A stretch of 64,000 nucleotides of DNA from a virus (IMGVR_UViG_3300033148_003376:39594-103593), one strand, 5' to 3'. Numbered from the stretch's first letter, positions 41,840 to 62,156 are shown. A program made the numbers and translations. The notes: generated by a model from the sequence alone, not told the origin.

Positions 41840-42238
41840 AAGATGCCTCCGTTTTATGTTCAAAACTCATAGCTGTCATGAAGTGATGATCAAGAAATGA
41901 GATGTAGACGAACGTAGAAGGTTTTCGTAGGGAAAACGAATCTCGGGTTGGTTTACTATATAGCCTATTCAATAGTTAAAGCATTCTAAGGACTCCTTTA
42001 CAATTTTGTATTTTGATAAACATCGACACTTTGCCAGGTGTATTCATGAAGATATTGGGATGAGTTCAATTAGGAACGATGTTCGTTTAGATGGGTAGGG
42101 TCAGTCTTTTTTCTAAGACATTTCAACGTCTCTCGACCAGGAAGCAGTCATAATAGAAGTTTGAACGTTTGGTAGACTCAGATAGATTTCGTCCTTAGAC
42201 GTGTCTAAGTATCATCAAACTTCTTTTCCAAGACATGT

Positions 42239-44686: not shown

Positions 44687-44740
44687 TTGACATGCGATTG
44701 ATTTCATGTTAAATTTCGCAGAATTTTAATTCTACGAAAA
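44687..44740 (+). promoter_or_regulatory. antisense sigma70-type promoter plus palindrome, copy 1
   Basis: TTGACA-17-TAAATT with TG extension; tttcgcagaatt-tt-aattctacgaaa at 44714-44739. Confidence 0.75.
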
Positions 44741-44741
44741 A

Positions 44742-45770
44742 TCAATTTTCAAACATCTCCAAGTCACCACCGTCAATCCTCGGACCAAGACTATCAGCCA
44801 CAATCTCCAGCTCGGGTGATGCAATTGGTATTGGTGGCGATGTCGGCGTTGCAGGTTTCTGCTTATCAGCCAGTTTCTGATTGAACTTTCGGATCTCCTT
44901 GACGATATGTGTCGAGTAGAACGTGATCGCTTCTGTCGCCAGCTTATTGAGCGATCTCACTTCACTCTTGTCCATACCAAAGAGTTTCACCATGTTGTCT
45001 ACCCACCAGGAAATCGGCATACCGAACATGGCCAACTGCCATCCAAACGGTGTCCATGGGTCAAGGTGGTCAGCAATCGCTTTCGTGATCAGAGCTGAGA
45101 TAGCCTGTGGTGTATTGAGAAGCTTTTCATCGTGCAACACACGGTTCGCTGCTTTGACATCGGCTGTCAGCATACCCTTGTTCGGTCCCCTCATGATCGG
45201 TCGGACAAACTTCTTGTCTTTCATATCCGCAAGAAGAATCTCGACATTCGGTTCCGTTGGGTTCTTCAGAAAATTCAAGACCTGGTCCTTGAGATCACTA
45301 GGAACGATGCCAGCTTGTTTTGTTACGAACTTTTCCTTCTCGGTAATTTCCTTCTCGGCTGCATTGAAGATCTGGTTCATCTGCTTTTTGTACTTCTCGT
45401 ACTGGAGCTTGAGGTACTCGCGGAACTTCTCGGTCCTGTCTTCGGGAGGTATCTTCTTGACCCTGGCAAATCCGACACCAAACATTTTCTCGGCGTCACG
45501 TTTCGAGAGAAACACCGATTTGACGAGTATTGGTTTGAGACTCCGTATGTTTTTCAAATCCCTATCAAGATCTTGGTATATCTTGACGACCACCTCGGGA
45601 ACACTCAACCCGGCATTGTCGAAGAACCCCATGGTAAGAAGAGCAGTAAACGGTTCGCGTTCAAACACATAGAGTCTACCGGTTTTAGTCTTGTAGATCT
45701 TTGACGGTTCCATAGCACCGCGCTTTTTTGCGGCTTCGATGAGGAGTAGTAGATTCTGTACGAGATTCAT
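44742..45770 (-). CDS. leader-tagged hypothetical protein
   Basis: AAGGAG RBS; MNLVQNLLLLIEAA; 342 aa. Confidence 0.75.
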   Translation of the reverse strand: MNLVQNLLLLIEAAKKRGAMEPSKIYKTKTGRLYVFEREPFTALLTMGFFDNAGLSVPEVVVKIYQDLDRDLKNIRSLKPILVKSVFLSKRDAEKMFGVGFARVKKIPPEDRTEKFREYLKLQYEKYKKQMNQIFNAAEKEITEKEKFVTKQAGIVPSDLKDQVLNFLKNPTEPNVEILLADMKDKKFVRPIMRGPNKGMLTADVKAANRVLHDEKLLNTPQAISALITKAIADHLDPWTPFGWQLAMFGMPISWWVDNMVKLFGMDKSEVRSLNKLATEAITFYSTHIVKEIRKFNQKLADKQKPATPTSPPIPIASPELEIVADSLGPRIDGGDLEMFEN

Positions 45771-45780
45771 TTGATTCTCC

Positions 45781-46881
45781 TTACAACGCGTTCATCTTTT
45801 CCAGGAAATCACTTGCGACTGAGCCATACTCTACATGACTTTCCCAGATCGCATTCTTATTGTATTCCTTCAACTCGGCAGTCATGTAGTCTATCATCTT
45901 GGATTCTGATGAGATCTTTTTCGATTCTTTCATGAGTCTCACAAAGAACTCGATGGTCGCCAGTGATTCAGGAAGCGAAACAGCCGCAATCGGAGAGATC
46001 CGCTTGTTTTTACCGTAGAGACCGTTGATGTGCCAAGCAGCGACCTTGAGCATTGTCGTACGGAAGATCATGAGTCTGAGTTCATCCTTGATCGGAATGA
46101 CCCATGTGTCTTTACTGTGGTACTTCGCGCCGATTCGATCGTTGAGTCCGGTCTCGAAATCCCGTCGCTTGAACTTGCGTTTCTTCTTCCCGGCGAAGAT
46201 GTCGGTGAGTTTCTTGACCGGGAATAGCTTTGATGGAGTCGCGAGATCTCTCGTGTTCTTCTTCGAGTCCCAGGTACGTTTTCCCATCTTCTGTTTGAGT
46301 CCATCATGATAGAGATGGAGATCCACGTAGAATGGGAATGTTGCGCCTTCCTCGCCGCCACCGAGAGATGTTTCGAGTCTCACCTTGTATAGTGAAACAT
46401 CGATCTGAATATAAAACACCAGAGTTCGATCCGGTGTGAAAAATTCGTATTCAAGAAGTACGAGATCGCCATATAGACCAGTCGGTATTTTCTCGACCTC
46501 GCTATATTTGAGAGTCTTCCCTGAGTACTTCTCGAAATACTTCAGGTAGACATCCGGTTTGAACATGTCTTTGAGGAGCTTGAGAACGATCGTGGACTTT
46601 CGTCTCTTCTCTTCGGCGTCCGCTTCCCGTTCGGCTTGTCGACTGGATATTGATGTACCTTTACCGGTACCGTGTTTTTGTAGATACTCGTATGCCGCGT
46701 TGACCTTTTGTTGCATCTCGGTCGTACCACCTCGATCCGGATGGTGTTTGAGACTGGCCTTTCTGTAGACTACCTTGAGATCGTAGTCCTGGGTCGGATC
46801 GATCTCAAGAACTTCCATGGCCATCTCTGAGGTCATGTTGAATTCGAGAATAAGGTCGAGGAAGTCGGATGCGATAGTCAT
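45781..46881 (-). CDS. J-domain (DnaJ-type) protein, leader motif at both ends
   Basis: EVLEI...LKVVYRKASLKHHPDRGG..EMQQKVNAAYEYL; N-term MTIASDFLDLILE, C-term SVASDFLEKMNAL. Confidence 0.88.
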   Translation of the reverse strand: MTIASDFLDLILEFNMTSEMAMEVLEIDPTQDYDLKVVYRKASLKHHPDRGGTTEMQQKVNAAYEYLQKHGTGKGTSISSRQAEREADAEEKRRKSTIVLKLLKDMFKPDVYLKYFEKYSGKTLKYSEVEKIPTGLYGDLVLLEYEFFTPDRTLVFYIQIDVSLYKVRLETSLGGGEEGATFPFYVDLHLYHDGLKQKMGKRTWDSKKNTRDLATPSKLFPVKKLTDIFAGKKKRKFKRRDFETGLNDRIGAKYHSKDTWVIPIKDELRLMIFRTTMLKVAAWHINGLYGKNKRISPIAAVSLPESLATIEFFVRLMKESKKISSESKMIDYMTAELKEYNKNAIWESHVEYGSVASDFLEKMNAL

Positions 46882-46888
46882 GATTTCC

Positions 46889-47092
46889 TCACTTGATTCC
46901 GAGTCTCGAATAGAGAAGCCTGATATCGTTCGCAGTGCTACTCAGGGCACCGATCGCACCAGCGAGTTCTCGCTTGACTCTCTTGTTGTCTGTCGCTTTC
47001 GATTCGGTATTCATCGCCTGGGTACCCGAATCGATCGCATCGAGAATATCTTTCTTGTCTTTGATGAGTGTCTTTTCATCTCCGAATGGCAT
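46889..47092 (-). CDS. small hypothetical protein
   Basis: 67 aa, AAAGGA RBS. Confidence 0.6.
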   Translation of the reverse strand: MPFGDEKTLIKDKKDILDAIDSGTQAMNTESKATDNKRVKRELAGAIGALSSTANDIRLLYSRLGIK

Positions 47093-47105
47093 GATGATAT
47101 CCTTT

Positions 47106-47366
47106 CTACCGAATTTTGAGCTTCTTGTATTGTGACATGATGTAGCTTCTCTTTGACTTCAGTTCATTGATCGCGTAGTCGATCACCCTCGCGAGTTTTT
47201 GATCCGTTAACACGATCTCCGACCTCTCCATCTGGAGATTCGACACGGCTTTATCGATAGAGTCCATGACTGCGATTTCACTCTTTCTCAGAGCCTTGAC
47301 ATCGGAGTATTCCGGCTTCGCAATGGCTTCTTCGATGGTGTCGTTAAGATCTTGTACAAGGCTCAT
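47106..47366 (-). CDS. leader-tagged small protein
   Basis: GAGGTG RBS; MSLVQDLNDTIEEA. Confidence 0.8.
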   Translation of the reverse strand: MSLVQDLNDTIEEAIAKPEYSDVKALRKSEIAVMDSIDKAVSNLQMERSEIVLTDQKLARVIDYAINELKSKRSYIMSQYKKLKIR

Positions 47367-47376
47367 GATTCACCTC

Positions 47377-47437
47377 TTGACTTCAGTTTCACTTTATGGC
47401 AAAATTCGCGGAATTTCGTTTACGTAATCCCACGAAA
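47377..47437 (+). promoter_or_regulatory. antisense sigma70-type promoter plus palindrome, copy 2
   Basis: TTGACT-17-CAAAAT with TG extension; ttcgcggaatt...aatcccacgaa with longer loop. Confidence 0.65.
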
Positions 47438-47438
47438 C

Positions 47439-47663
47439 TTACTCGAACTTCCAACCTGAGTGTTTACCATCAAGAATAAGTTCGATTTGCTCCTTAGCTG
47501 CTTTCTCGCTGGCGGCATTCGTACTGATTTGATAAACGTTCGTCGGTCCTCCTTCATCATCGTTCAGGTCAATTTTGACATTGAAACTAAACTTGAGAAG
47601 CTTGGCCTTAGACTCGTTACATGCTTTCTTGATGTCATCCAGAAATTTCTTCGCAATTCCCAT
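47439..47663 (-). CDS. leader-tagged small protein
   Basis: AAGGAG RBS; MGIAKKFLDDIKKACNES. Confidence 0.8.
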   Translation of the reverse strand: MGIAKKFLDDIKKACNESKAKLLKFSFNVKIDLNDDEGGPTNVYQISTNAASEKAAKEQIELILDGKHSGWKFE

Positions 47664-47674
47664 GACTATCTCCT

Positions 47675-48652
47675 TTACGAACACATATTCAAAAGACGAT
47701 CTGCTTTCGACTCCGCTGGCTTGCCTTCGAAGTTCTCGACGAGTCTTGGCATCTTCCTACCAAGCTTATTGAACTTGGACTCCGGTGCAATGGTCAGATC
47801 CGGTGACGCGACCGACGACAGTCTTTTCAAAGCGTCTTCCAGTTTGTGATCGAGTAGATAATGGGAGATGATCAACTCTCGCAGATGTGCAAATGAGAAC
47901 CCGTCGGTGCGCTCAGAGAGTGCCTTGATCTGATCCGGCTTCTCGATTCCCTTGAGCTTGTGCTTGAGGTAGATCAGACGACCTTCTATCGGAGGATGTC
48001 CCACGTGAATGGTGTAATCGAATCTACCGGGACTCTTGACCCGTTCCGGGATCCGATTCAGATAGTTCGTGGTCGCGATGTAACAGACTCCGTCTACTGA
48101 CATGTTCCCATCGAGAAGCTGAAGGATCTCGTGTTCTCCATATTGCACCAGCTTGTCGAGATCTTCCATGATGCAAAGAAGCTTACGATCCGGTTCGACT
48201 TCCTTGAACATGCGAATCGCGTTGATTGTGATCCCGAGAGACTGGGTATAGAAAACGACGTCGTCCTTGGCGAGTGTGTCCTCGACGAGAATCTTGATCG
48301 CCGACGATTTACCGGATCGATGAGGTCCTTCGAGGAGCATTCCACGGTTATGCAGATACCCGATGTCGTGATACTTCTTTCCCTTCTTCCAGAACTTTTC
48401 GATCTGTGTGAGGATTTCGACATGTTCTTTCATGGGAAACCGGAGAAGCTCATCGCTCTTCAGATCCATTTCCTGGAAATAGACTCCCGCTTGATTACGA
48501 GATGGAACGTAGACACCGGGTTTCAATCTCTTGATGATCTCGATGTCCTCGGGAGCAGGTTTGCTCATACTCCCCTGTTGAATGTATTGTACGAGTTCAC
48601 GCTTTTTCTCTACAGCTTCGCACATACTGAGGAGTCTATCCGCTTTACCCAT
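47675..48652 (-). CDS. AAA+ ATPase (classical AAA clade, BCS1/FtsH-like module), leader motif at both ends
   Basis: GMLLEGPHRSGKS, LLCIMEDLD, ATTNY...PERVKSPGRFD, TDGFSFAHLREL; N-term MGKADRLLSMCE, C-term ESKADRLLNMCS. Confidence 0.88.
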   Translation of the reverse strand: MGKADRLLSMCEAVEKKRELVQYIQQGSMSKPAPEDIEIIKRLKPGVYVPSRNQAGVYFQEMDLKSDELLRFPMKEHVEILTQIEKFWKKGKKYHDIGYLHNRGMLLEGPHRSGKSSAIKILVEDTLAKDDVVFYTQSLGITINAIRMFKEVEPDRKLLCIMEDLDKLVQYGEHEILQLLDGNMSVDGVCYIATTNYLNRIPERVKSPGRFDYTIHVGHPPIEGRLIYLKHKLKGIEKPDQIKALSERTDGFSFAHLRELIISHYLLDHKLEDALKRLSSVASPDLTIAPESKFNKLGRKMPRLVENFEGKPAESKADRLLNMCS

Positions 48653-48696
48653 GAGAGATATCCTTTCAAACCAAGATGATATTTTGGGCATACCTT

Positions 48697-49104
48697 TTAC
48701 GATATACTTGATTGGTTTCCGTCGTTGATCACGTACAATGTCAGTTTTCCTGGTCCAACGGCTGCGCCGTAATACTGTGCAGCGATCTTGGCCAAGTTTT
48801 CCTTCGGGAAACCTGAGATCTCGACCCTATAGAGACCGCTCACGGTAAACTTATAGTTCGGTAGAAGAGTCACGATACCAGTCGTCTCGTCTCTCACAGA
48901 CGGATCATATTCGTTGGTGTCATCGTCGACGATCATCTTCTTGAGCTTGATCTCAAGACCCGTTTCGTCACCCTTCGTGTATTCAACGTAGAGTGCCATT
49001 TTCTGGGTGTTGAGTGTGTTGAACTCTCCCTCGTTGCCAGCGAACGCGCTTGTGAGTAGTACGTCGTCGAAGATCTTCACGGTTCTCTCCTCAATGTTTC
49101 CCAA
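48697..49104 (-). CDS. hypothetical beta-rich protein
   Basis: 135 aa, TTG start. Confidence 0.6.
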   Translation of the reverse strand: MGNIEERTVKIFDDVLLTSAFAGNEGEFNTLNTQKMALYVEYTKGDETGLEIKLKKMIVDDDTNEYDPSVRDETTGIVTLLPNYKFTVSGLYRVEISGFPKENLAKIAAQYYGAAVGPGKLTLYVINDGNQSSIS

Positions 49105-49160
49105 GCCACTTCATCAGTTGATTGAGCGCCTTAGACATCTGTGGTGCAATGGTATCGGTG

Positions 49161-49412
49161 TCATTTTCCGAGCTTCGTCATGACAGCGTTCTTGTTTGCG
49201 TCCCACTCATCCACGAACCACTTGACCAGCTCGGGATCCTGATCGTAGTTTTTGGAGACGTACTCGACGATGGAGTCCTTATTTTCGATGTCGATGCCTT
49301 TGCCTTTCGCGTGTTCGATCGCCGCGAGAACGACAGAGAGGAAACTTTCGTCCATCTCGTAGAGTTTGGATTCGTTGACTACGCTCTGAAGGTCTTTTGC
49401 GGTTGCTGTCAT
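49161..49412 (-). CDS. leader-tagged small protein
   Basis: AAGGAG RBS; MTATAKDLQSVVNES. Confidence 0.75.
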   Translation of the reverse strand: MTATAKDLQSVVNESKLYEMDESFLSVVLAAIEHAKGKGIDIENKDSIVEYVSKNYDQDPELVKWFVDEWDANKNAVMTKLGK

Positions 49413-49577
49413 GATTACGCTCCTTTACATTTATTGATCAAAAAGCCTTGACTTCTACTTCATCATTCTATTACATACCGTCTGCACCAACGACAGACGA
49501 CGCAAATTCTTCAAAGCCCCACCACACATCTTCCTAGATTCACATCACGTTCCTCTTCGTCGTCGTCGTGTGTAATC

Positions 49578-49868
49578 TTACTTGTTCTCAAGTCGAAAGA
49601 TGAGATCCCTGCTTTGGATCGTCCCGACCGAAATGATATCCATGGACTGAAGATTTTTCAAAGCAGTCGCATCTACTCTGAATGCTTTCTTACCTACGAT
49701 CTCCAGCATGAGTGTCGGTCCACTCTTCAAGACACGGTAGTATTGTTTCTTACCCCAGAAGTTTTGAAGGTCTCTGATGTTCTTGTCGTTGATACCTTCG
49801 ATGTCTTCTGCTTTGACCATGTCGTTGGATTCTTGAATTGAATTCAAAAGATCTTTCGCGATACCCAT
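49578..49868 (-). CDS. leader-tagged small protein
   Basis: GGGAG RBS; MGIAKDLLNSIQES. Confidence 0.8.
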   Translation of the reverse strand: MGIAKDLLNSIQESNDMVKAEDIEGINDKNIRDLQNFWGKKQYYRVLKSGPTLMLEIVGKKAFRVDATALKNLQSMDIISVGTIQSRDLIFRLENK

Positions 49869-49879
49869 GACAGTCTCCC

Positions 49880-50161
49880 TTACTGTGATTTTTCTGGATA
49901 ATGTCTATCCACGAAAAGCCATGCCGCTTTGACATTCTTCCCGGTGAGACTCTCGATTCTCACTAACTCCTGCCATGCCTTGATCTTGTCGTCTTTATAT
50001 TCGAGAGAGAATTTCAAAGACGAATTCCATCTTTCTCTGGTCTGACTCGGAAGACGGCCGAGTAGGTCCATGAGATCGTGTTTGTCTTGTATGGACAGAA
50101 CCGGTGTTTTCACTTTCTTTGCTTCTCCGATGGCATCGAGTAAGTCTTTCATGATACTCAT
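49880..50161 (-). CDS. leader-tagged small protein
   Basis: AAGGA RBS; MSIMKDLLDAIGEA. Confidence 0.8.
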   Translation of the reverse strand: MSIMKDLLDAIGEAKKVKTPVLSIQDKHDLMDLLGRLPSQTRERWNSSLKFSLEYKDDKIKAWQELVRIESLTGKNVKAAWLFVDRHYPEKSQ

Positions 50162-50172
50162 GATGATTCCTT

Positions 50173-51777
50173 TCACGACTCCATTTCGTTTGTTTCGTCT
50201 TCTACCTTGATCACTCCAGTCAAGCCGATCATGTTGAGCTGTTGACCGAGGAATTTGGCGAATGCTTCCATGTCGACTTTCTCGGCAAGGGGAGATTCTT
50301 CGTCTTCGGTGAGGTTGTTCAGGAAGTCATTGATATTACTCAACATATTCACGGACGTGTCTAAAAACTCGAGTTTGTCGATATTGTCTATCTCGATGAG
50401 CTTGTTCCTGAAGTCAACGACAATATCATCATCTTTCGCGCCTATGCCTTTATTCGCCAAATGAATCTGACAAACACGTCTGACACCATCCCGAATAGCT
50501 CTTTGGATATTTTTTAGACGACGAAGATACCTGGCATAGCGTCTGAGGATCTCGCCTTTATCCATGCCTTCCGAAAGGAAGATGACCTCATAGAGTACAC
50601 CGATAGAAGAGCAACACACCTTTCTGAGATCTTCTATAGACGCGAGTAAATCGTCGGGTTCGTCGGATTTGTAATCCATCTTGTTCACGGTACCCTTATC
50701 ACCAAAGATAGGAATACACTTGAACTTGCCAGCGGTACCCAGAACGTTTTCGAGTGTCATCTGACCTTGGCTGACATCGATAGCGATCTTCTCGTTGATG
50801 ATGCCTTCGAGCCGACGACAGACTCGTGTGGCTTTGTCGAGATCATACCCAGGAGGAACCTGGATACTGAGGATCGTTCCGCTAGTCATCTTCTGAAGCT
50901 TCGTCGCTGGGACAAGCTGTTCCATCAATTCCAGCTCTTTGAACTTATTGATCACTGGATATATGACACCTTTACCCACACGAACGAATCTCGGGATATT
51001 AGCGAAGCATGTCTCAGGGTCTTTGACACCATAATGCTTCTGGATATCGATTCTGATCTTCTTACCCGGGAGTGTGAATATCGCGTAGTCTGAACTATCT
51101 TTCAACTTGAGTGTGTACCCGTGTCGACCAGCCGCAAGTTCGATGTACCCGTCGATCTTCCTACCTTTCGAAACCGCGAGTACGGTACCCTGTTCAACAC
51201 AGTCGATAAGTTCTTCGAGACCACCTTTATTCGAGACCTTCGGCTTGAGGATGTATTCGCCGTAGCGGAGCACGTCCGGTAGGATATCGAGAATAAGCGT
51301 ATCGAATCCAATCCGCTCGTCGAGGATCTTCAGCTCTTTGTTTATATGTTTGTTTTCTGAAGATACCGACAGGACTTCCCCGCTTGAGACTTCCGGAGTA
51401 AGCGCGTCTTCCACCATCTGATCGATGATGACATCGACGAGGTAGAAATCAGAGATCCTGTCGATCTCCTTGATGATGTTTTTTCGGAGACGAGATACTC
51501 TGGTGTACGCGGCAACCATTGACGTGGACGCGAACTTGTTCTTCATGAGACTGCGAATGTCCGCGAGACTTTCAGCGAGAGATCCATAGTCGCTGACATT
51601 GAGAGTCGTTTTCAGGATATCCAGTTGTGATTCGTTGAGACTACTCAAAGACTCGATGACCGAGTTGACCGGACTAGAGAGATCCTCGTCTCCAACGACA
51701 TCTGTTACCGCTGCAGTCATAGCACGAGTTCTCGTATCAACTGGTGTCTTGGATTTCTTTTTACGTATAAATGGCAT
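50173..51777 (-). CDS. portal protein (T4 gp20-like)
   Basis: 534 aa between terminase and protease; VDVIIDQMVEDAL, DVLRYGEYIL, ELELMEQ, LRRYARYLRRLKNIQ. Confidence 0.75.
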   Translation of the reverse strand: MPFIRKKKSKTPVDTRTRAMTAAVTDVVGDEDLSSPVNSVIESLSSLNESQLDILKTTLNVSDYGSLAESLADIRSLMKNKFASTSMVAAYTRVSRLRKNIIKEIDRISDFYLVDVIIDQMVEDALTPEVSSGEVLSVSSENKHINKELKILDERIGFDTLILDILPDVLRYGEYILKPKVSNKGGLEELIDCVEQGTVLAVSKGRKIDGYIELAAGRHGYTLKLKDSSDYAIFTLPGKKIRIDIQKHYGVKDPETCFANIPRFVRVGKGVIYPVINKFKELELMEQLVPATKLQKMTSGTILSIQVPPGYDLDKATRVCRRLEGIINEKIAIDVSQGQMTLENVLGTAGKFKCIPIFGDKGTVNKMDYKSDEPDDLLASIEDLRKVCCSSIGVLYEVIFLSEGMDKGEILRRYARYLRRLKNIQRAIRDGVRRVCQIHLANKGIGAKDDDIVVDFRNKLIEIDNIDKLEFLDTSVNMLSNINDFLNNLTEDEESPLAEKVDMEAFAKFLGQQLNMIGLTGVIKVEDETNEMES

Positions 51778-51790
51778 TAGACGTCCTTGT

Positions 51791-52144
51791 TCAATTTGGA
51801 ATTATCGTCGTGACAAACGTAGTCGGGAAAACGTGTCCGTCTACAATCTTCGATTTGAATTCACCCGTCATCTTGTAACCGATCATGTCGACAAGTTTCT
51901 TGAGTCTCCTGGTGTACGCCTTCTTGTCTTTTTCGATGTACTGTTCCAGGGTCTTGTACTCAACAGTGATTTCTTTTTCTTTCTCAGTGGTGTTGAGAAG
52001 TCTCGCTGCTTTCACCGCTGTGTATCCAGACCCAAAACTCAGATCACGATCTTTGTTCAGGATCTCGATATTCCTGTGAAGAATGATGTGACCTGGAATC
52101 ATACTTCTCTCGACGAGATCCAGGAATTCTCTTGCGATACCCAT
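51791..52144 (-). CDS. leader-tagged protein
   Basis: MGIAREFLDLVERS. Confidence 0.8.
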   Translation of the reverse strand: MGIAREFLDLVERSMIPGHIILHRNIEILNKDRDLSFGSGYTAVKAARLLNTTEKEKEITVEYKTLEQYIEKDKKAYTRRLKKLVDMIGYKMTGEFKSKIVDGHVFPTTFVTTIIPN

Positions 52145-52161
52145 GATTCATCTACCTTCGT

Positions 52162-52662
52162 TTACTTTGCCTTGTCGACGATCTGAACAGCAGTCTTGAG
52201 CTGTTTCGAGAATTTCTCTGGGATCTTCCTTCCGGACCTGACGAGGGAATCGAACAACGTCTTCGCGATATGTAGATCTCCTTCGATACCGTCAGAGTTT
52301 TCGTCGAGGACTTCGAGAATCTTCTCATCGTCTATTCCGAGATGGTTCGAGACTGTCTTGAATTTCTGCTCAACACCTGTGATGTGATTGCCGATGTCTT
52401 CAGCGTCGTCGAATTCCGTCTTGATCTCGGTAAGTGCAGTGTCAAGAGCTTTGGCTACATCTTGACACTCATTGCTCACGAACGACTCGATCGTATCGAT
52501 GTAGGAGAACATCTCTTGAAGCAACCCGTCTTCTTTGGCTCTTGTTTCGAGATCGACCAGGTCTACCGTTGAAAGAGTGCGTCGAAAATCGAATGACTTG
52601 ATTCTACCGAGTTTAGTCTTGGCTTCATCGAATTGTTTGAGAATGTCGTCTGCTCTACCCAT
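52162..52662 (-). CDS. leader-tagged helical protein
   Basis: GAGGT RBS; MGRADDILKQFDEA. Confidence 0.8.
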   Translation of the reverse strand: MGRADDILKQFDEAKTKLGRIKSFDFRRTLSTVDLVDLETRAKEDGLLQEMFSYIDTIESFVSNECQDVAKALDTALTEIKTEFDDAEDIGNHITGVEQKFKTVSNHLGIDDEKILEVLDENSDGIEGDLHIAKTLFDSLVRSGRKIPEKFSKQLKTAVQIVDKAK

Positions 52663-52703
52663 GATAGATTACCTCTTTGCTTTCGTTTCTATCGTCTCAA
52701 AAA

Positions 52704-52732
52704 TTATATACTATGCGTAGCATAGTATATAA
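52704..52732. repeat. perfect 13-bp AT-rich inverted repeat
   Basis: ttatatactatgc-gta-gcatagtatataa. Confidence 0.85.
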
Positions 52733-52755
52733 AAATCCTTTAGTCCAGTCTTTTC

Positions 52756-52810
52756 TTGACTAGGGTTTTGACGTATGATAGAATTCGTGAAATTTTAAAT
52801 TCCACGAAAA
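52756..52810 (+). promoter_or_regulatory. antisense sigma70-type promoter plus palindrome, copy 3
   Basis: TTGACT-17-TAGAAT with TG extension; ttcgtgaaatt-tta-aattccacgaa at 52784-52808. Confidence 0.8.
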
Positions 52811-53562: not shown

Positions 53563-53574
53563 TCGATCATCTCC

Positions 53575-54823: not shown

Positions 54824-55254
54824 GACTTCACCTTTCTCAGGGATCCCAGATTTACACGGTAGACCATCCCGTCTTCAGACGTAACAGACGCCTGTCCGTA
54901 TCGGGGAAGAATCCTGCTCACGGTATAGACATGATCCTTACCGTGCTTCGTTATCATGTCCCGCTCGATCTGGTTCGTCGGTTTCGAGAGTTTGACGGAG
55001 ACTCCCTTTTTGATCCCATTGTCGTTGGCTTCGTCTACGTGGTCATCGTCATCGGGTTTGTAACAACTACACTCTTTCACCGCTTTTGGCCAGATGTCCT
55101 TCCATGGACACTTGTCTCCCTCCTTGATCACGCCACGTTTTGTATTCTTACATCCTGGGACACAGACATCATCTTTGAAGTGAGCGCAGATAGTTCCCTG
55201 GTTTGCTTCGTTTGCTTTGTCGATTGTATCGAGGAGATTGTTGACGAGGGTCAT
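54820..55254 (-). CDS. leader-tagged protein with Cys-rich domain
   Basis: MTLVNNLLDTIDKANEA; six Cys; linker HVDEA. Confidence 0.75.
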   Translation of the reverse strand: MTLVNNLLDTIDKANEANQGTICAHFKDDVCVPGCKNTKRGVIKEGDKCPWKDIWPKAVKECSCYKPDDDDHVDEANDNGIKKGVSVKLSKPTNQIERDMITKHGKDHVYTVSRILPRYGQASVTSEDGMVYRVNLGSLRKVKS

Positions 55255-55281
55255 TGGTGAAGTCCTTTCAAAGAAACAAAG

Positions 55282-55854
55282 TCATAGGAAAAAGATGTCT
55301 TCTATTTCCAATTCTTCCCATTCAATGTGATCGTCTTTGTGAAAATCAGGGGACACGACGAGTATAGATCCATCGTAATCACGTCGTGTATAAAGCGAAC
55401 TATTAAACCAGTCCCGTACTCGATCTTCGGAAGAAGGATTGTCCACTATGATATAGTCTGCAGATATTCCAGCGATAGCGCACCCAATAGCATCAAACCG
55501 ACAGAACCCTCCCTCTGCAGTCTCGATATTGAATCTTGTGGGACAATTCTGTTCTGTCAATTCTATGGAAAATTTGGACATGGTCTCACGAGCAAGATTC
55601 GCTGTCCATTTCGCAATTTTCATGTCCCTGGAGATTACGAGTATACGAGCTTTCGGACGGGTGTCCAGGATGTGCATCGGGAGTACAGCGGAGATCAACC
55701 CGTCGCCGTCGTAGTCATTCGACGTCTTGATCAGAAAATGAGATTCTTCTCGGTTCACAAATCTAGCAAGAAGATTCCACATTTCCATTATCCGCCGATC
55801 CATCTCTGGATTCTCTCTGTTCAAACAAGCGTCGAGTTCTTCAATAGATGACAT
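55282..55854 (-). CDS. degenerate paralogue of the terminase large-subunit ATPase domain
   Basis: Colinear with TerL N-domain: LISAVLPMHIL/LVSRRLPAYIF, AIGCAIAGISADYIIVDN/GVGAGITGLGGHYLLIDD, VRDWFNSSLYTR/ILDWYRSTFYTR; Walker A absent. Confidence 0.75.
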   Translation of the reverse strand: MSSIEELDACLNRENPEMDRRIMEMWNLLARFVNREESHFLIKTSNDYDGDGLISAVLPMHILDTRPKARILVISRDMKIAKWTANLARETMSKFSIELTEQNCPTRFNIETAEGGFCRFDAIGCAIAGISADYIIVDNPSSEDRVRDWFNSSLYTRRDYDGSILVVSPDFHKDDHIEWEELEIEDIFFL

Positions 55855-55869
55855 GAGCTTCCTTTGGTT

Positions 55870-57381
55870 TTAGAATTTATACCCGAATAGTCGTCGTACT
55901 TCTTCACCAACTGAATAACCTTGACCATCACTGCCCGCGAGAGCATCGAGCCAACTCGCCGAATGAAGCTTCAAAAGTGCTTGGCTCGACGAGTCCGTGC
56001 GATCGTTCGTCGCCGCATTGGGAAACGACACAAGCTCATCAATATAATCTTTGACCCATGGCGCATCGATAGTAGTAGGATCCGGTACCCAGATATTCCC
56101 TGCTTCAAATTGAGGAGAAACAGCACGTAAACGCGCTACCTTGGAATCTTGTCCTGGATTAAACCCAGTGACACCAGGAACGTGTTCACACATCGTCTCG
56201 ATAACTGCTGGACCATTGGCTTTATCCTCGACGGCGTGTTCTATTGACATCGGCCATTTCCCAGCCATGTCTTTCATCGCCGAAAGAGTCCCGATAAATC
56301 CCGTACGCTCGTGATACATATCGAGTAGATATCTCCGAGGACCAATCGTCCCCCAGACAGTCCCACAGACAAACGAGTTGTTATCACCGGCTTTGAAGTT
56401 ACAGTCCCACGATGTCATGATCACATCGAACTGTTCGATCGGTGGCATCTCTCGATATTTTCGGAACCATGTCCGCTCAATGATGTTTCCGGATTCAGGA
56501 GAAGGTCTTTGCTGATACAGTGCGTTCCAGACCTGGGTACCGAGAGATGCTTTGATCTTCGCGAGTCGTTCGAGGTTATATTTCCATTCCCAAAGAGGAT
56601 CTCCGATTTTACGTGGGTCGTCTGGGTTGCTATCATCCTCTTTTACCGCTGGAAAATTGACGAGTACCCATTGGTCTGCGTCTTCGTCTTCAGCCATGAA
56701 TTCAAGGAGAGAACCAATAAGGTCCGCTTCATGCCAACGTGTAGCGGTAATGAGAATTCCGGCGTCTTTTTCCGCTCTCGTATAGAATGTACTGCGATAC
56801 CAATCGAGGATAGTTTTTCTGGTCGTCTTCGATAACGCTTCTTGCATGTTTTTGAGAAAGTCGTCGATTAGAAGATAGTGTCCTCCAAGTCCTGTGATCC
56901 CGGCTCCAACTCCAGCCGAACGATATGCTCCTTCATAATTGACGATTTCGAAGAGATCTGAATTCCGAAGATATGATCCATGTGCTGTCGTACGGACGTT
57001 CTTAGACCAGAGTGTTGTATTTGGAAAGACCTGTTGATACTCGTTCGAATCGATGATCCGCTGAACATCGCGGTTCATTCTTGATGCAAGGTCGGATCCG
57101 TATGAACATGAGATGATCGACGTGTTGGGATTTCTGCCGAAAATATATGCTGGTAATCTCCTAGAAACTAGCTCGGATTTTCCATGGCGAGGTGGCATCG
57201 TAACGATGAGTCTTTTGATCTCACCTCTGATGAACTTGTCAAGGACTTCACAAAGAACGGCATGGTGCCAATTTACCTGATAGTCCTTCTTCGTGTACGT
57301 CGTGAAATCGAGCAGACTCCTCCGCGCGAATTCTGCGTCAATCGAATTTACAGTGACTGGGACTTGGATAGGTGCGTTCAC
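55870..57381 (-). CDS. terL: terminase large subunit
   Basis: MPPRHGKS Walker A, LLIDD Walker B, TRWHEADL, ALYQQRP, SWD nuclease, VEDKANG, FPNAATNDRTDSSSQAL. Confidence 0.95.
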   Translation of the reverse strand: MNAPIQVPVTVNSIDAEFARRSLLDFTTYTKKDYQVNWHHAVLCEVLDKFIRGEIKRLIVTMPPRHGKSELVSRRLPAYIFGRNPNTSIISCSYGSDLASRMNRDVQRIIDSNEYQQVFPNTTLWSKNVRTTAHGSYLRNSDLFEIVNYEGAYRSAGVGAGITGLGGHYLLIDDFLKNMQEALSKTTRKTILDWYRSTFYTRAEKDAGILITATRWHEADLIGSLLEFMAEDEDADQWVLVNFPAVKEDDSNPDDPRKIGDPLWEWKYNLERLAKIKASLGTQVWNALYQQRPSPESGNIIERTWFRKYREMPPIEQFDVIMTSWDCNFKAGDNNSFVCGTVWGTIGPRRYLLDMYHERTGFIGTLSAMKDMAGKWPMSIEHAVEDKANGPAVIETMCEHVPGVTGFNPGQDSKVARLRAVSPQFEAGNIWVPDPTTIDAPWVKDYIDELVSFPNAATNDRTDSSSQALLKLHSASWLDALAGSDGQGYSVGEEVRRLFGYKF

Positions 57382-57388
57382 GGGTGTA

Positions 57389-57571
57389 TCATTTACCCTG
57401 TCTTGGAGATGTGGAGAGCGATGTCCGTCGACCGTCTACCATGTATTCGTGTAGAAGACATGTGTACCACGGAGCTTGTACATACGGAGATGTAACGACT
57501 AGATATTGATCGCTACTGTGTTTGTTCAGTAGAACACGGTTATACCATTTCTCTATTGTAGGAGTGTTCAT
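57389..57571 (-). CDS. small hypothetical protein
   Basis: 60 aa, ATGA coupling. Confidence 0.45.
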   Translation of the reverse strand: MNTPTIEKWYNRVLLNKHSSDQYLVVTSPYVQAPWYTCLLHEYMVDGRRTSLSTSPRQGK

Positions 57572-58242
57572 ACGTCGCCTTCTCCTCCGACTGTTTGAAT
57601 CTCGAACGAATACACTCCGTCTTTTTCTTTGACGCTGGTGTTCAAAACATATCTTGATCCTTTCGGCGCAAGACCATGGGTACTGTATTTATTGATCTTG
57701 TACTTTCTTAGGATCTTTCTGATCTTATCCATAGAGATTGTTCTTGAAGCATCTTCTACAGCAACTCCATCCGTGCCACTGATCATGATAGATCCGCCGA
57801 AATCTCCATCGGGTTTCGTAATCTCTGTCACTTTCAGGTTGAAGCTCTTTGCTACCTTGTTGACCATCGACGTAATAGTCTTCCAAAGACCTCCTTGTAT
57901 CTTCGTAATCTGTACAGTGATAATCTCGGGACTTCCACCCGAAAGACTGCCGATCACGAAGTCTTTCGGAACAATCGCTTTGAGTTGGTCTCTGATCTCT
58001 TCAGATCGACGTACGATTTCATCTCTGGACATCTCACCGGTGTCCTTGTAGTAATCAAACATGATGACAAGGGTATCTTTTCCGTGTTGACGAACCTTGT
58101 AACCAGATTGTATCTTGCGTTTCGTCCATATCGACGTTTTCAATCCAAGCTTTTTGAGATAAGGCAAAATGGCTGTAGGCTCAACAGCGAGCATACCCAT
58201 CGCTTCTTCAATGACGTCAAGAAGATCTCGTACGATTCCCAT
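57568..58242 (-). CDS. leader-tagged protein
   Basis: AAGGAG RBS; MGIVRDLLDVIEEA. Confidence 0.8.
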   Translation of the reverse strand: MGIVRDLLDVIEEAMGMLAVEPTAILPYLKKLGLKTSIWTKRKIQSGYKVRQHGKDTLVIMFDYYKDTGEMSRDEIVRRSEEIRDQLKAIVPKDFVIGSLSGGSPEIITVQITKIQGGLWKTITSMVNKVAKSFNLKVTEITKPDGDFGGSIMISGTDGVAVEDASRTISMDKIRKILRKYKINKYSTHGLAPKGSRYVLNTSVKEKDGVYSFEIQTVGGEGDV

Positions 58243-58254
58243 TTTCTTCTCCTT

Positions 58255-58743
58255 TTACGCGGCTCTTGTGCCACCATGTGGAATTCTCTTTGCAAGACCT
58301 ATGATCAGCTCGTCTGCCTGACCCATGATCCTCTTTTGATCTTTCTCCGGGAAGCTATCTATGTTCTGCAGTTTGAATCTCATCTGGTCAATAGAGTGGA
58401 TATCCTTGGGGAACATCTTCTTGAGATTCTTGAGTGCTACGAGTTGTTGATTGACTCGACCACCTTGTGCCTTCTCGATGAGACTGAGAAGATCCTCGAC
58501 GAGGGATTCTTTCGGCGCGGGTCCGTATGTCTTTCCATATCGAGCACGGATCTCTTTTCTCTTCTCTATCGAGAGACTGTACCAGATGCTACCGATAGTC
58601 TGTCGGATCCGTTCGTCGTCGTAGGTGGGACTGGATTTCTTGATATCCTTTACCATCTTGTCCCACCATTCAGATGGTGCCTTGAGGCTAGGCGCAGTCT
58701 CCGCTTTTTCAACGAGACTGAGAAAGGATTGTACTAGGTTCAT
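58255..58743 (-). CDS. protein with two leader copies (fusion of two tagged modules)
   Basis: MNLVQSFLSLVEKAE and internal ESLVEDLLSLIEKAQ. Confidence 0.8.
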   Translation of the reverse strand: MNLVQSFLSLVEKAETAPSLKAPSEWWDKMVKDIKKSSPTYDDERIRQTIGSIWYSLSIEKRKEIRARYGKTYGPAPKESLVEDLLSLIEKAQGGRVNQQLVALKNLKKMFPKDIHSIDQMRFKLQNIDSFPEKDQKRIMGQADELIIGLAKRIPHGGTRAA

Positions 58744-58988
58744 GATACTTTCCCCAGTGAAAACTTGACTTCGTGTACATTGAATTCCAGACCATCAGAC
58801 GTACAATTCAAATTGGTAACATGGTTGGTCTTGACGACCACGTTAGTATCAGGGGCTTTGAAAGTAATCTTGTCCTGTGTGATTACATCGACTCTATAGA
58901 GACCACTTACAGATGTTCCAAGTGTAGTCATGGAAAGCCTGACTTTCTTTCCGAACAGGCTTATGAGATGGGTTTGTAAATTCATCAT
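58740..58988 (-). CDS. hypothetical protein, paralogue of 58985..59239
   Basis: Shared LQ..L....M.T.G..VSGLY..D....KI...T.DG..F.V..V.F.L pattern. Confidence 0.7.
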   Translation of the reverse strand: MMNLQTHLISLFGKKVRLSMTTLGTSVSGLYRVDVITQDKITFKAPDTNVVVKTNHVTNLNCTSDGLEFNVHEVKFSLGKVS

Positions 58989-59239
58989 CTCAGATGAAAC
59001 TCTACGTTATTGACTGTGAAGGTGAATCCGTCAGTGGTGTACTTCAAACCCTTGATGTACTTCGTCTCGATAACAATCCTCGTACACGACTGAATGAGAA
59101 TGATTTTCTCGTCAGAAACATCGTCGATCTTATAGAGACCCGACACGGCAAGTCCGTGTGTCAACATGGTGACTTTGAGTCTATCAGGAATGGATGTCCT
59201 GAGATAATCTTGAAGTGTCAAAAGATGTATCCTCTTCAA
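58985..59239 (-). CDS. hypothetical protein, paralogue of 58740..58988
   Basis: Same shared pattern; TTGA/ATGA coupling. Confidence 0.7.
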   Translation of the reverse strand: MKRIHLLTLQDYLRTSIPDRLKVTMLTHGLAVSGLYKIDDVSDEKIILIQSCTRIVIETKYIKGLKYTTDGFTFTVNNVEFHLR

Positions 59240-59562
59240 CCTTGTGCGAGTTCCTTCGGTAGGATCGGAAGCTTTCGAATATGTTTCTCGATCGCAGCCT
59301 TGGTACTGCTCACGGTACCACCGGCTCTGAACGACGTCGCGATGAGGTATCCCTTCGGTAGCTTGTCGTCGTCATGGAAGACATCGACGACTCCGTATAC
59401 GTCCTTCTCCGGGTCGTTCGGTATGTAGACAAGACTCGCCTTTCCGCCTTTGACGCTCAGAAGATGATGAGCTTGTTTCGCAAGCGTCGTCGCAGTCTCC
59501 TCGACCCACTTCATTACCTTGCTCTCATTGATAACTTTGAGAAAATCTCTTGCCAGCGTCAT
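59236..59562 (-). CDS. leader-tagged protein
   Basis: MTLARDFLKVINES. Confidence 0.8.
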   Translation of the reverse strand: MTLARDFLKVINESKVMKWVEETATTLAKQAHHLLSVKGGKASLVYIPNDPEKDVYGVVDVFHDDDKLPKGYLIATSFRAGGTVSSTKAAIEKHIRKLPILPKELAQG

Positions 59563-59566
59563 AATC

Positions 59567-59953
59567 TCACTCCCATGGTTCTTTGGACATTTTACCTTCT
59601 ATCGCTTTGATGAGTGCATCTCTTGTGTACGGTTTGTAAATAATGTAATCAAATAGTTTCTTGTTTTCAACAATGCCACCAGTCGACGCGACAATCCTTG
59701 GACATTTATTCAGTGTCTTTCTGAGCCAACGAGTGAAATCCTCGCCGTTTCCACCGTCTCCGTTCATCTTTATGTCACAAAGAATGACATTGATGTCTAT
59801 CGTCTTAATGATCTCCGCTGCAGACTTGAGCGTGGTAGCAGTAAGGATATAGTAAGACTGATCAGAGAGAAATCGTTTGATGACGTCGAAGACCCATGGT
59901 TCGTCTTCAATGATGAGGATCGTTTTCGTTTTCAGTCTCCTCTTGACAAACAA
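59567..59953 (-). CDS. single-domain response regulator (CheY-like receiver)
   Basis: ILIIEDE, VILCDIKM (phosphoacceptor Asp), NG.D, IVASTG, YKP; start codon uncertain. Confidence 0.85.
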   Translation of the reverse strand: MFVKRRLKTKTILIIEDEPWVFDVIKRFLSDQSYYILTATTLKSAAEIIKTIDINVILCDIKMNGDGGNGEDFTRWLRKTLNKCPRIVASTGGIVENKKLFDYIIYKPYTRDALIKAIEGKMSKEPWE

Positions 59954-59971
59954 AGTGAAATTTGTTATACT
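59943..59971 (+). promoter_or_regulatory. sigma70-type promoter for 59989..60237
   Basis: TTGACA-17-TATACT with TG extension, then GGAGG and ATG. Confidence 0.85.
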
Positions 59972-59988
59972 AAAGATGGAGGTTAATT

Positions 59989-60237
59989 ATGACAAAAAAA
60001 CATCCATACGGATATGACCACACAACAGGCGAAGGTCAGAAACGTCTCATGTACGAATCAATTGGGTTCGACATTACCAAAAAACAAGAGACGCCATCCT
60101 ATTACGAAGATGGTGAAACAGGGTCTGATCCAATCCTCGACGACAATGGAAATCCAACAGGTAAAATCAAGATGTATCCTACCGGACGAATCGTCGACCG
60201 AACAACTCGTCTGAATGCGTATCAACCGAAGAAATAG
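59989..60237 (+). CDS. hypothetical protein; only well-supported plus-strand gene
   Basis: Consensus promoter, GGAGG RBS, fills a gap in the minus-strand gene series. Confidence 0.8.
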   Translation: MTKKHPYGYDHTTGEGQKRLMYESIGFDITKKQETPSYYEDGETGSDPILDDNGNPTGKIKMYPTGRIVDRTTRLNAYQPKK

Positions 60238-60455
60238 TCATACCATTCTTCGTCCGTCGTACGAATGAGCATTCCAATCGTCTCACCTGGAAAGTCACTC
60301 GTGTGACCACCGGCATCTCCCTTTTCAAGAGCTTTGATAGCCTTGGGAATATTCTTCTGAACTCTCTTGAGCCATTCGATCGCCGCTTTGGTCATCTTGG
60401 CTTCATCGCCTTGACCCTCGTTACATGCTTTCAAGAAATCCTTCGCTATGGTCAT
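60222..60455 (-). CDS. leader-tagged small protein
   Basis: MTIAKDFLKACNEG. Confidence 0.8.
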   Translation of the reverse strand: MTIAKDFLKACNEGQGDEAKMTKAAIEWLKRVQKNIPKAIKALEKGDAGGHTSDFPGETIGMLIRTTDEEWYDYFFG

Positions 60456-60459
60456 TTGA

Positions 60460-60801
60460 TCATTCCCTTTCATCGATACAGTTGATTCGTCCCTTGTCGA
60501 TGGCTTCCTCGGTCTCTCCCTCGTCGAGGTCTTTCATCTCGACGGTAAGGTTTCTCTTATCATGCCAGCAATCACCACAGTACACGATCTTACCGTTCGT
60601 GATGTGAAAATGGCAGACTTGTCGAGCGGTCTTCGGTCCCATAGTGACCTTGATCGATGGCTTCACTGTGGGACAGTCAAAGTCTCCGTTGAAATCCCAG
60701 TTCGGTTCCGCTGGTTTGACCTGGAACGCGTGTATCGTCTTACATCCTGGACACCAGAAGTTGTACTGTGTAGATTCACCCCAGCGTTTGACTTTTGACA
60801 T
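60460..60801 (-). CDS. DUF6527-like metal-binding protein
   Basis: FWCPGC...H....W.FNG....PT..PSI....CH..IT.G.I.YC.DC.H pattern recalled for this family. Confidence 0.65.
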   Translation of the reverse strand: MSKVKRWGESTQYNFWCPGCKTIHAFQVKPAEPNWDFNGDFDCPTVKPSIKVTMGPKTARQVCHFHITNGKIVYCGDCWHDKRNLTVEMKDLDEGETEEAIDKGRINCIDERE

Positions 60802-60804
60802 AGG

Positions 60805-61161
60805 TCACTGATCCGATGTTTGAACTTTGAAAAAGTACGACCCTTCATCTTCGATAACCTCTGACGCGTAAACAAAGAGCTTTCCGCTAGGTGCCTTTTC
60901 AAGAGTATCGAAGACTTTGATTCCGTGTTTCTTCCCTACTGAAACAAGTTCTTTCAATATCGAAGATCGTGCCTTTTTCGTTTTCGATTCGTCGTCGCCT
61001 TGTATCTCAATACCACCCTCATCTCCATCCGGGTCAAACAGATCATTCAGCTTGAATCCCTTGGCATTCTTCTTGACGACAGCCTCGACATCTTTCCAGA
61101 TCTTTCCAACCGCTTCATTGGCCTTCTCGACGGTCTCCAACACGTCCTTCACGATTCCCAT
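60805..61161 (-). CDS. leader-tagged protein
   Basis: GAGGAG RBS; MGIVKDVLETVEKANEA. Confidence 0.8.
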   Translation of the reverse strand: MGIVKDVLETVEKANEAVGKIWKDVEAVVKKNAKGFKLNDLFDPDGDEGGIEIQGDDESKTKKARSSILKELVSVGKKHGIKVFDTLEKAPSGKLFVYASEVIEDEGSYFFKVQTSDQ

Positions 61162-61209
61162 GACAACTCTCCTCATGAATTTGATTCAACCATTTCATAA
61201 ACCGTTGCT

Positions 61210-61401
61210 TCATACTCCTTTTACGAACTCAACCCAATGTCTCGTCGACGCGGCTTTCATTCCCATCTTCACCTGACGCAGTTGAATGAAATTGACGATC
61301 TCGTCGACGGACTTCCCTTGTGCCTTGAGCCGTTGGATCATGTCTTCAACCGACTCTACTGACGCCTCGATCATGTCAAGAAATTTCTTCGCGATTCCCA
61401 T
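61210..61401 (-). CDS. leader-tagged small protein
   Basis: MGIAKKFLDMIEASVES. Confidence 0.8.
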   Translation of the reverse strand: MGIAKKFLDMIEASVESVEDMIQRLKAQGKSVDEIVNFIQLRQVKMGMKAASTRHWVEFVKGV

Positions 61402-61405
61402 GACT

Positions 61406-61759
61406 CTACTCCTTCGTTAGTTCGTAGTAATCTTCAACTATTTTCAACCCCTTCCCACCAGGAAAAGGATCGTGTACAAGCTCACCGTCTTTCACGACGA
61501 CTGCATGAGAGACACCTTCATGTCTTGGAGATGGTCCACTCGCGATAGCATACCCAGGTGGTGGATCTTCCTCTGAGTATATATCCCAGTCCTTTGACCA
61601 GATAAAATCGACCAGTGCGATATGATAGTCTTCCTCGTCATGGAAATGCGGGACATCATTAATGTCTATCTCCATGATCGAAGCAATACACGCGGAGAGA
61701 CAGTTTCCCCTGGTACCGGCTTTCTTGTCATGGAAGATGGTTTGAAAAACTGGGATCAT
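61406..61759 (-). CDS. papain-like (C39-type) cysteine peptidase-like protein
   Basis: Q...GNCLSACIAS (Cys), HAVVV (His), VHDP (Asp). Confidence 0.6.
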   Translation of the reverse strand: MIPVFQTIFHDKKAGTRGNCLSACIASIMEIDINDVPHFHDEEDYHIALVDFIWSKDWDIYSEEDPPPGYAIASGPSPRHEGVSHAVVVKDGELVHDPFPGGKGLKIVEDYYELTKE

Positions 61760-61761
61760 GA

Positions 61762-62091
61762 TCAACCAATGATTGTCCACTCGACTTGCATCGTTGCATC
61801 TTGTCCCATCATCGTGTTGACGTCAATCCTGACTTCATGGCTCGTGCCGTCATCGAACTCGACCATAGGTGTATACCGAACGGCAAAATCTCGCGAAGGT
61901 TTATTGAGTCCAAGACCACTCATCATCTTGATCGGATTCGGCCAATCGATAGATTTGACGTCCTTTTTGAAGACCTTCTCGATCTTGGTCTTGAGGTCAA
62001 CCTTGGTAATCTTACCACCGGCTTGTGCTTCATTGACTTGGTTCGCTTCGTTGATCTTGTCGAGTAATTGCGCTGCAGGACTCTTGCTCAT
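61762..62091 (-). CDS. leader-tagged protein
   Basis: AAGGAG RBS; MSKSPAAQLLDKINEANQVNEA. Confidence 0.8.
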   Translation of the reverse strand: MSKSPAAQLLDKINEANQVNEAQAGGKITKVDLKTKIEKVFKKDVKSIDWPNPIKMMSGLGLNKPSRDFAVRYTPMVEFDDGTSHEVRIDVNTMMGQDATMQVEWTIIG

Positions 62092-62102
62092 GACTCTTCT
62101 CC

Positions 62103-62156
62103 TTGACATGTGGAAATATTCGTGATAATTTCCGTGGAATTTTATTCCACGGAAAA
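62103..62156 (+). promoter_or_regulatory. antisense sigma70-type promoter plus palindrome, copy 4
   Basis: TTGACA-17-TAATTT with TG extension; perfect tttccgtggaat-ttt-attccacggaaa at 62129-62155. Confidence 0.75.

Follow-up and report, generated by a model that had tools for sequence, protein, structure and literature searches.

Why should a phage set promoters of the host type, with no gene behind them, against the ends of its own head and packaging genes? The question is raised by a 64,000-nt stretch of viral DNA (IMGVR_UViG_3300033148_003376:39594-103593; hereafter the window), which comprises bases 39594-103593 of a single contig of 103,593 bp from an uncultured phage; positions below are those of the window unless marked as contig positions. 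Four intergenic sites in this window, S1 to S4, each combine a sigma70-type promoter on the plus strand with a palindrome directly behind it, next to the stop codon of a minus-strand gene (Table 1). The initial annotation had taken these sites for antisense promoters directed at the 3' ends of genes and had left three roles open for the palindrome, as the operator of a dimeric phage protein, as a hairpin at the 5' end of the antisense RNAs or as an element acting on the minus-strand mRNA. Our analysis demonstrates that S1-S4 are a real, non-random composite element. We favour an explanation, to which we assign a probability of about one half, in which they are inverted relatives in design of the promoter-early stem-loops (PeSLs) of T4-type phages, each pairing a hairpin at an mRNA 3' end with an opposing promoter that host RNA polymerase would use early, transcribing back into the preceding gene.

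All four sites read as had been claimed, with TTGAC(A/T), 17 nt ending in TG-n and NANNNT on the plus strand, an immediately following palindrome and a minus-strand stop codon close by. When both strands of the 64 kb were scanned for TTGACW-N14-TG-N-NANNNT, five matches were found against 0.34 expected, a number reached by none of 100 shuffled sequences; all five are intergenic and on the plus strand, and they are also the top-scoring promoter sites of the window in our own scoring of both strands. The -35 hexamer is close to TTGACA at every site of S1-S4 (TTGACA twice, TTGACT twice) and is preceded by C at three sites and by A at S1, all four have a 17-bp spacer in which TG is set off from the -10 box by a single base, and the -10 box invariably has A at position 2 and T at position 6, with an overall match to the consensus of 3-5 of 6. 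Aligning the four sites on the -35 box left as invariant columns TTGAC, one G of the spacer, TG, A-11 and T-7, followed by CG and the AATTT of the left palindrome arm, while the remainder of the 17-nt spacers has diverged and none of the 30 columns upstream of the -35 box is invariant.

No plus-strand ATG with a ribosome site was found behind S1-S4, and no plus-strand open reading frame (ORF) lies within 900 nt of them, in agreement with the earlier statement that no credible plus-strand gene follows. Neither a minus-strand sigma70 promoter nor a T4-type TATAAATA late box was detected in the cassettes. On the sense strand TTGAC reads GTCAA, and GTCAA as a general leader motif of that strand was ruled out, being present 9 times upstream of start codons where 7.8 are expected. 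Since GTCAA is not enriched there, and since the -35 box of S3 lies away from a gene start, a sense-strand role for TTGAC is unlikely. Ten further sites of the same layout in the contig stand ahead of real genes, indicating that the phage uses the host consensus promoter. The description of S1-S4 as extended -10 promoters of the sigma70 type facing against genes was thus borne out, in that they are among the best matches of the window, have no gene behind them and share their layout with the promoters of real genes elsewhere, and judged by sequence the promoter half of the cassette is probably functional.

The palindrome is joined to the promoter in a fixed register, the first base of its left arm being the last base of the -10 box. 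Its arms, about TTCGYGGAAT and ATTCCRCGAA, are shared by the four sites, as the consensus of the initial annotation implied; the spacer of that consensus did not hold as a fixed feature, the distance between the arms being 4, 12, 5, and 3 nt at S1 to S4. From the end of the right arm to the minus-strand stop codon there are 3, 2, 2, and 10 nt, respectively. Promoter and palindrome form a unit of about 70 bp, and the intergenic gaps that hold it measure 67, 72, 148, and 73 nt. At S1, S2, and S4 the -35 box adjoins the ribosome site of the next minus-strand gene, so that the unit fills the gap, whereas the box of S3 is separated from the next gene start by about 90 nt. Five of the eight intergenic gaps of at least 50 nt between 42 and 64 kb contain such a plus-strand promoter. 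A scan of the whole 103,593-bp contig, which the initial annotation had proposed as a search for copies near a regulator gene, returned the palindrome at these four places only, and family searches of the proteins neighbouring the cassettes revealed no regulator family.

On which strand the palindrome acts is indicated by its imperfections. The arms carry one mismatch at S1, two at S2 and one at S3, each being a C-A on the plus strand that becomes a G-U pair in minus-strand RNA, so that pairing is kept in 40 of 40 cells on the minus strand (including the 4 G-U) vs 36 of 40 on the plus strand. Two compensatory changes were identified as well, G-C to A-U at S1 and U-A to C-G at S4. Folding of the minus-strand RNA gave -11.5, -19.2, -16.1, and -16.3 kcal/mol for S1 to S4, compared to -6.8, -7.2, -7.2, and -19.4 kcal/mol for the plus strand, making the minus-strand fold much the better at three of the four sites (S1-S3). 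The minus-strand hairpins have 11-12 bp and z-scores of -4.7 to -7.7 and form a stable stem-loop directly past the stop codon, and the additional bases between the arms of S2 lengthen its stem while leaving the same UAAA apical loop. The predicted antisense start, an AA 7-8 nt past the -10 box at all four sites, sits atop the left arm, and since it lies inside the palindrome the antisense RNA would be without that arm. Together with the weak plus-strand fold at three sites, this speaks against the proposed 5' hairpin of the antisense RNAs. The pairing pattern, the folding energies and the arm spacing instead favour the third of the earlier suggestions, and we favour reading the palindrome as a hairpin of the gene-sense RNA directly behind the stop codon and not as an operator.

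What this hairpin would do to the sense transcript is suggested by its tail. The tails UUUAACAU, UUUUGCCA, UUCUAUCA, and UUAUCACG hold 3-4 U and fall short of a U-rich tract of at least 5 U in 8, and a scan for intrinsic terminators listed none of the four hairpins on the minus strand. The hairpin could therefore be a weak intrinsic terminator at best; alternatively, it could protect the mRNA 3' end or act as an attenuator. At S1, S2, and S4 no promoter motif was seen between the hairpin and the next gene, hence some read-through seems needed. No Rfam family was matched at the cassettes. At S3 another hairpin (52704-52732) follows 24 nt past the -35 box in gene direction, ahead of the next gene start; it is terminator-like and may act as a terminator, as a late promoter or in both ways.

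Table 1. Coordinates of the S1-S4 cassettes and of other features of the phage contig (window positions unless marked contig).
Feature	Position	Strand	Details
S1 promoter	-35 TTGACA 44687-92; TG 44707-08; -10 TAAATT 44710-15	plus	predicted start AA 44722-23
S2 promoter	-35 TTGACT 47377-82; TG 47397-98; -10 CAAAAT 47400-05	plus	predicted start AA 47412-13
S3 promoter	-35 TTGACT 52756-61; TG 52776-77; -10 TAGAAT 52779-84	plus	predicted start AA 52791-92
S4 promoter	-35 TTGACA 62103-08; TG 62123-24; -10 TAATTT 62126-31	plus	predicted start AA 62138-39
S1 hairpin	44714-44739 (palindrome 44715-44738)	minus	11 bp, one G-U; loop UAAA; tail UUUAAC; 3 nt past stop 44742
S2 hairpin	47405-47436	minus	11 bp, two G-U, plus 2-bp inner extension; apical loop UAAA; tail UUUUGCC; 2 nt past stop codon (47439) of gene 47439-47663/84
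S3 hairpin	52784-52808	minus	11 bp, one G-U; loop UAA; tail UUCUAUC; 2 nt past stop 52811
S4 hairpin	62129-62155	minus	perfect 12-bp stem; loop AAA; tail UUAUCAC; 10 nt past stop 62165; ten-base palindrome arms span 62131-62153
Second hairpin past S3	52704-52732	minus	AT-rich, 13 bp, then TTTTT; two TATATA boxes
Head protease	40184-41863	minus	
342-aa gene	44742-45770	minus	precedes S1 hairpin in gene direction
Portal-like protein	50173-51777	minus	weak PHROG match, E 5e-4
Large terminase (TerL)	55870-57381	minus	
Genes with shared N-terminal motif	43901-44674, 47106-47366, 52162-52662, 61762-62091, and neighbours	minus	
Early-promoter family	contig 1051, 3704, 4669, 5596, 8856, 37947; window 59943	plus	
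Early-promoter family	contig 19983, 20532, 21474	minus	
Fifth plus-strand promoter of late arm	59943-59971	plus	early-promoter family; without the S1-S4 palindrome
Candidate decayed fifth cassette	49448-49499	plus	TTGACT, poor -10, no TG; then unrelated perfect palindrome CGTCTG-N9-CAGACG at 49479-49499

According to a rough gene map the contig consists of two arms, with mostly plus-strand genes, many of them small, in contig 1-39 kb; the remainder from contig 39 kb onward, equivalent to the whole window, has nearly all its genes on the minus strand. S1-S4 are located within the upstream 20 kb of this structural (late) arm, which encodes a head protease, a portal-like protein and TerL (Table 1). 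In the explanation that we favour, the two parts of the cassette would act on opposite strands, the hairpin on the minus strand and the promoter on the plus strand. On the sense transcript, the hairpin 2-10 nt past the stop codon would mark or protect the mRNA 3' end or attenuate read-through. On the other strand, an extended -10 promoter of the host sigma70/sigmaA type, its -10 box written in the hairpin base and the A/U-rich tail, would start an RNA at the AA atop the distal arm, opposite the loop of the sense hairpin, and this antisense RNA would extend across the loop and then across the opposite arm, which in the sense hairpin is the 5' one, before entering the preceding gene at its 3' end. 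We infer transcription from S1-S4, its timing and its effect from these elements: host polymerase would fire S1-S4 early, like the ten early promoters of the phage, and convergent transcription together with the antisense RNA would keep the head, packaging and accessory block quiet until the host-type promoters are shut off. Alternatively, head-on interference would enforce a stop at the hairpin until that shut-off. Either the antisense RNA or head-on interference could be at work, and present evidence does not separate the two.

A related proposal, which we consider unlikely, is that the cassette is a time-gated stop. As long as host sigma70 polymerase keeps loading at the facing promoter, and only then, the hairpin would halt sense transcription; polymerases would collide head-on or be occluded there, antisense pairing would begin at the hairpin loop, and the gene-less promoter would amount to a switchable terminator. 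Shut-off of host-type promoters by the phage would free read-through into the next genes.

The closest known design is that of the PeSLs of the T4-type phages RB49/phi1, PST, and nt-1, composites of a strong sigma70 promoter and a stem-loop (PMC2839356; PMC4122927). PeSLs take up the space between a stop codon and the next ribosome site, occur repeatedly and adjoin ORFans, and in one subclass the stem-loop comes just past the -10 box (PMC2839356; PMC4122927). S1-S4 resemble them in combining a sigma70-type promoter with a stem-loop, in filling the intergenic gap, in occurring in four copies and in having ORFan neighbours, and they resemble the one subclass in particular by a stem-loop right after the -10 box; G-T pairs occur in the stems of both. 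However, a PeSL promoter runs with the genes and drives the next one, whereas the promoters of S1-S4 are on the plus strand and the flanking genes on the minus strand; the PeSL stem-loop stops upstream transcription on the strand of the promoter, whereas the hairpin of S1-S4 appears to be selected on the opposite strand; and PeSLs populate an early hyperplastic region, whereas only four copies of the present cassette were found, in the head and packaging region. Because of these reversals in promoter orientation and in the strand on which the stem is selected, we have filed S1-S4 as an inverted variant of PeSLs and not as members. The near-identical early-promoter family of this phage, in contrast, fits the PeSL description.

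Host-polymerase transcription running against late genes early in infection is exemplified by the anti-late RNA of T4, and lambda OOP, a single-copy RNA of 77 nt with its own terminator, is transcribed from a promoter just past the stop codon of its target gene. The promoters of S1-S4 likewise lie just beyond a stop codon and are aimed at the 3' end of the target gene; unlike OOP, they are present in four copies and have no plus-strand terminator within 900 nt. OOP is cited as the classical case in the study of PAK_P3 (PMC4933390), where early cis-antisense RNAs over structural genes were described, and more cases were found in an ONT-cappable-seq survey (PMC10914365). Such RNAs, made by host polymerase against late or structural genes early in infection, were proposed to prevent premature late expression (PMC4933390; PMC10914365), and by analogy with PAK_P3 (PMC4933390) late-gene silencing by antisense RNA is plausible for S1-S4. 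The PAK_P3-type RNAs were observed by RNA-seq, mostly start within genes and have no common cassette, whereas S1-S4 are known from sequence alone and have a fixed promoter-hairpin architecture at gene ends. With regard to interference, in Escherichia coli a stem-loop in the nascent RNA and converging polymerases set a precise stop where the U-tract alone is weak (bioRxiv 10.1101/2022.10.23.513370). In those bidirectional terminators the converging polymerase comes from a convergent gene, while at S1-S4 it would come from a gene-less promoter at the hairpin itself.

The genes around the cassettes offer few functional clues. The 342-aa protein encoded in front of S1 has no homologue besides itself among 5.8 billion clustered proteins, and the proteins flanking the cassettes match no Pfam family at the curated cut-off and solely PHROG families of unknown function. 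Genes on both sides of the cassettes share a short N-terminal motif (e.g., MSRAGDVLKKM, MGRADDILKQF, MGIAKDLL...), and the true start of the ORF upstream of S3 is probably an internal Met (MSRASDVL). Apart from this motif the flanking proteins are unrelated, and the idea that the flanking genes are paralogues duplicated together with the cassette was dropped, as the proteins are not paralogous. A group I intron was identified at 39539-39781 on the minus strand (Rfam RF00028, 99 bits, E 7e-25, full model length).

Relatives of the phage proved to be distant. Isolated phages yielded no megablast match to 44-53 kb, the TerL relatives among phages, viral contigs, and metagenomes are only 34-56% identical and the portal relatives 33-48%, and a J-domain protein encoded nearby has no relative in viral contigs. 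None of 26 loci of portal relatives carries comparable antisense cassettes. The pattern of the full cassette was absent from the viral and metagenome contigs searched, and the pattern of the hairpin alone was absent from the viral contigs searched. The 27 viral contigs that matched the early-promoter pattern are unrelated to this phage, and in bacterial genomes the palindrome gave 17 single matches scattered across phyla, about the number estimated for chance, offering no clue to a host or regulon.

Several observations weigh against the favoured explanation. The -10 boxes are weak, matching the sigma70 consensus at 3-5 of 6 positions. Moreover, these hexamers overlap the hairpin base and the A/U-rich tail and are thus partly forced by the hairpin, so that the independent evidence for a promoter lies mainly in TTGAC, TG, and the exact spacing. 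No convincing plus-strand hairpin with a T-run was found within 900 nt, S2 and S4 being without any candidate, so that no small RNA of defined length would be expected. For the hairpin, four copies give a strand bias of modest significance: it was reached by 35 of 500 shuffles, and four transitions would all fall on one strand by chance about 1 time in 16. The collections searched contain no close relatives, and the conservation of promoter and hairpin was judged from the four copies of one phage.

Some of these observations are shared by an explanation in which the cassette is only an mRNA 3' hairpin or weak terminator, the promoter-like boxes being inactive by-products or relics and the -10 box a mirror of the A/U-rich tail. 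The overlap of the -10 hexamers with stem base and tail, their 3-5 consensus bases and the lack of any product behind the boxes are all in line with it. However, it does not account for TTGAC at exactly 17 nt and TG at -15/-14 being kept at all four sites while the spacers otherwise diverged, nor for five pattern matches, all on one strand, where 0.34 are expected, and GTCAA has no sense-strand reason; we consider this explanation unlikely. Ranking behind it is the possibility that the cassettes are mainly recombination or mobility sites, inverted modules of the PeSL type at gene boundaries that shuffle accessory genes and have little regulatory role in place. Like PeSLs (PMC2839356), they occupy the interval between stop codon and ribosome site, their neighbours include the orphan 342-aa protein and proteins without Pfam family whose PHROG hits come down to a weak one of unknown function, and the phage also has a same-direction PeSL-like family. 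Yet spacers and flanks have diverged so far that little homology remains for recombination, the flanking genes are not paralogues, and promoter positions and sense-strand pairing that are kept by selection argue for a function in place.

Less probable is the operator that the initial annotation had put forward; here a dimeric repressor, from the phage or the host, would bind the DNA over -7 to +20 and switch the antisense promoters off. Although the palindrome sits over the -10 box and the start site, where repressors classically bind, and the arm sequence is conserved, arms set 3, 4, 5, and 12 nt apart, mismatches that are all G-U on one strand and the two compensatory changes do not suit a protein site. 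The neighbouring proteins include no regulator family, and the bacterial matches to the palindrome, single, scattered and about as many as estimated for chance, give no sign of a host regulon. The least probable of all, and in our view very improbable, is a role of the bound polymerase that does not involve the RNA, such as an aid to DNA entry (transcription-driven internalization), R-loop priming of replication or a sink for host polymerase. All five promoters do point as the early arm does and are spaced 2-7 kb apart; however, the contig has no terminal repeat and offers no evidence on genome ends, and such a role would leave the fixed fusion to a sense-strand hairpin unexplained.

The ten further promoters with the -35/17-nt/TG/-10 layout are nearly all near-copies of one sequence of about 45 nt. 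Nine of these sites belong to the arm outside the window and are oriented like the genes that follow; the tenth, at 59943, is inside it (Table 1). They have TTGACA, an inverted repeat ACAAAC-N8-GTTTGT in the spacer and TGnTATACT, and most have a shared leader, AAAGAGTGGTCAGGG. Because its spacing is fixed and its stems are weak (about -4 kcal/mol), this inverted repeat looks more operator-like than the palindrome of S1-S4. Behind the copy at 59943 come a good ribosome site and an 82-aa plus-strand ORF (59989-60237), the only credible plus-strand gene of the late arm, which has no family match and, at its 3' end, shares 16 nt with the convergent minus-strand gene 60222-60473. In a 165-nt gap, positions 49448-49499 may represent a decayed or ancestral fifth cassette, although the resemblance is weak.

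Other elements of the late arm were noted in passing. Its non-coding gaps hold minus-strand boxes of the form T(T)TATATA(G/C) at 8407, 11707, 29387, 41962, and 52731/52710, and of the 12 TATATA sites in the contig about half are located in the ~2.3 kb that the late-arm gaps make up. The T4-type TATAAATA is not enriched, and the T(T)TATATA(G/C) box may be the late promoter of the phage in its place. GC-rich hairpins of another type lie between late genes on the minus strand (2473-2492, 38289-38310, 10052-10087, and 31209-31233), two of them with UUCG loops; a proper T-run follows only that at 38289-38310, and the other three resemble hairpins of RNA ends or processing.

Relative to the known phage cassettes of promoter and stem-loop, the novelty of S1-S4 is the inverted design, with the promoter set against the genes and the hairpin on the mRNA of these genes. 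Synthetic circuits could make use of such cassettes as orientation-dependent insulators. Should the promoters fire, gene-less promoters of the host type would stand in fixed register against the mRNA 3' hairpins of a lytic phage, and S1-S4 would provide a compact means of timing or insulating the head and packaging genes without a protein regulator.

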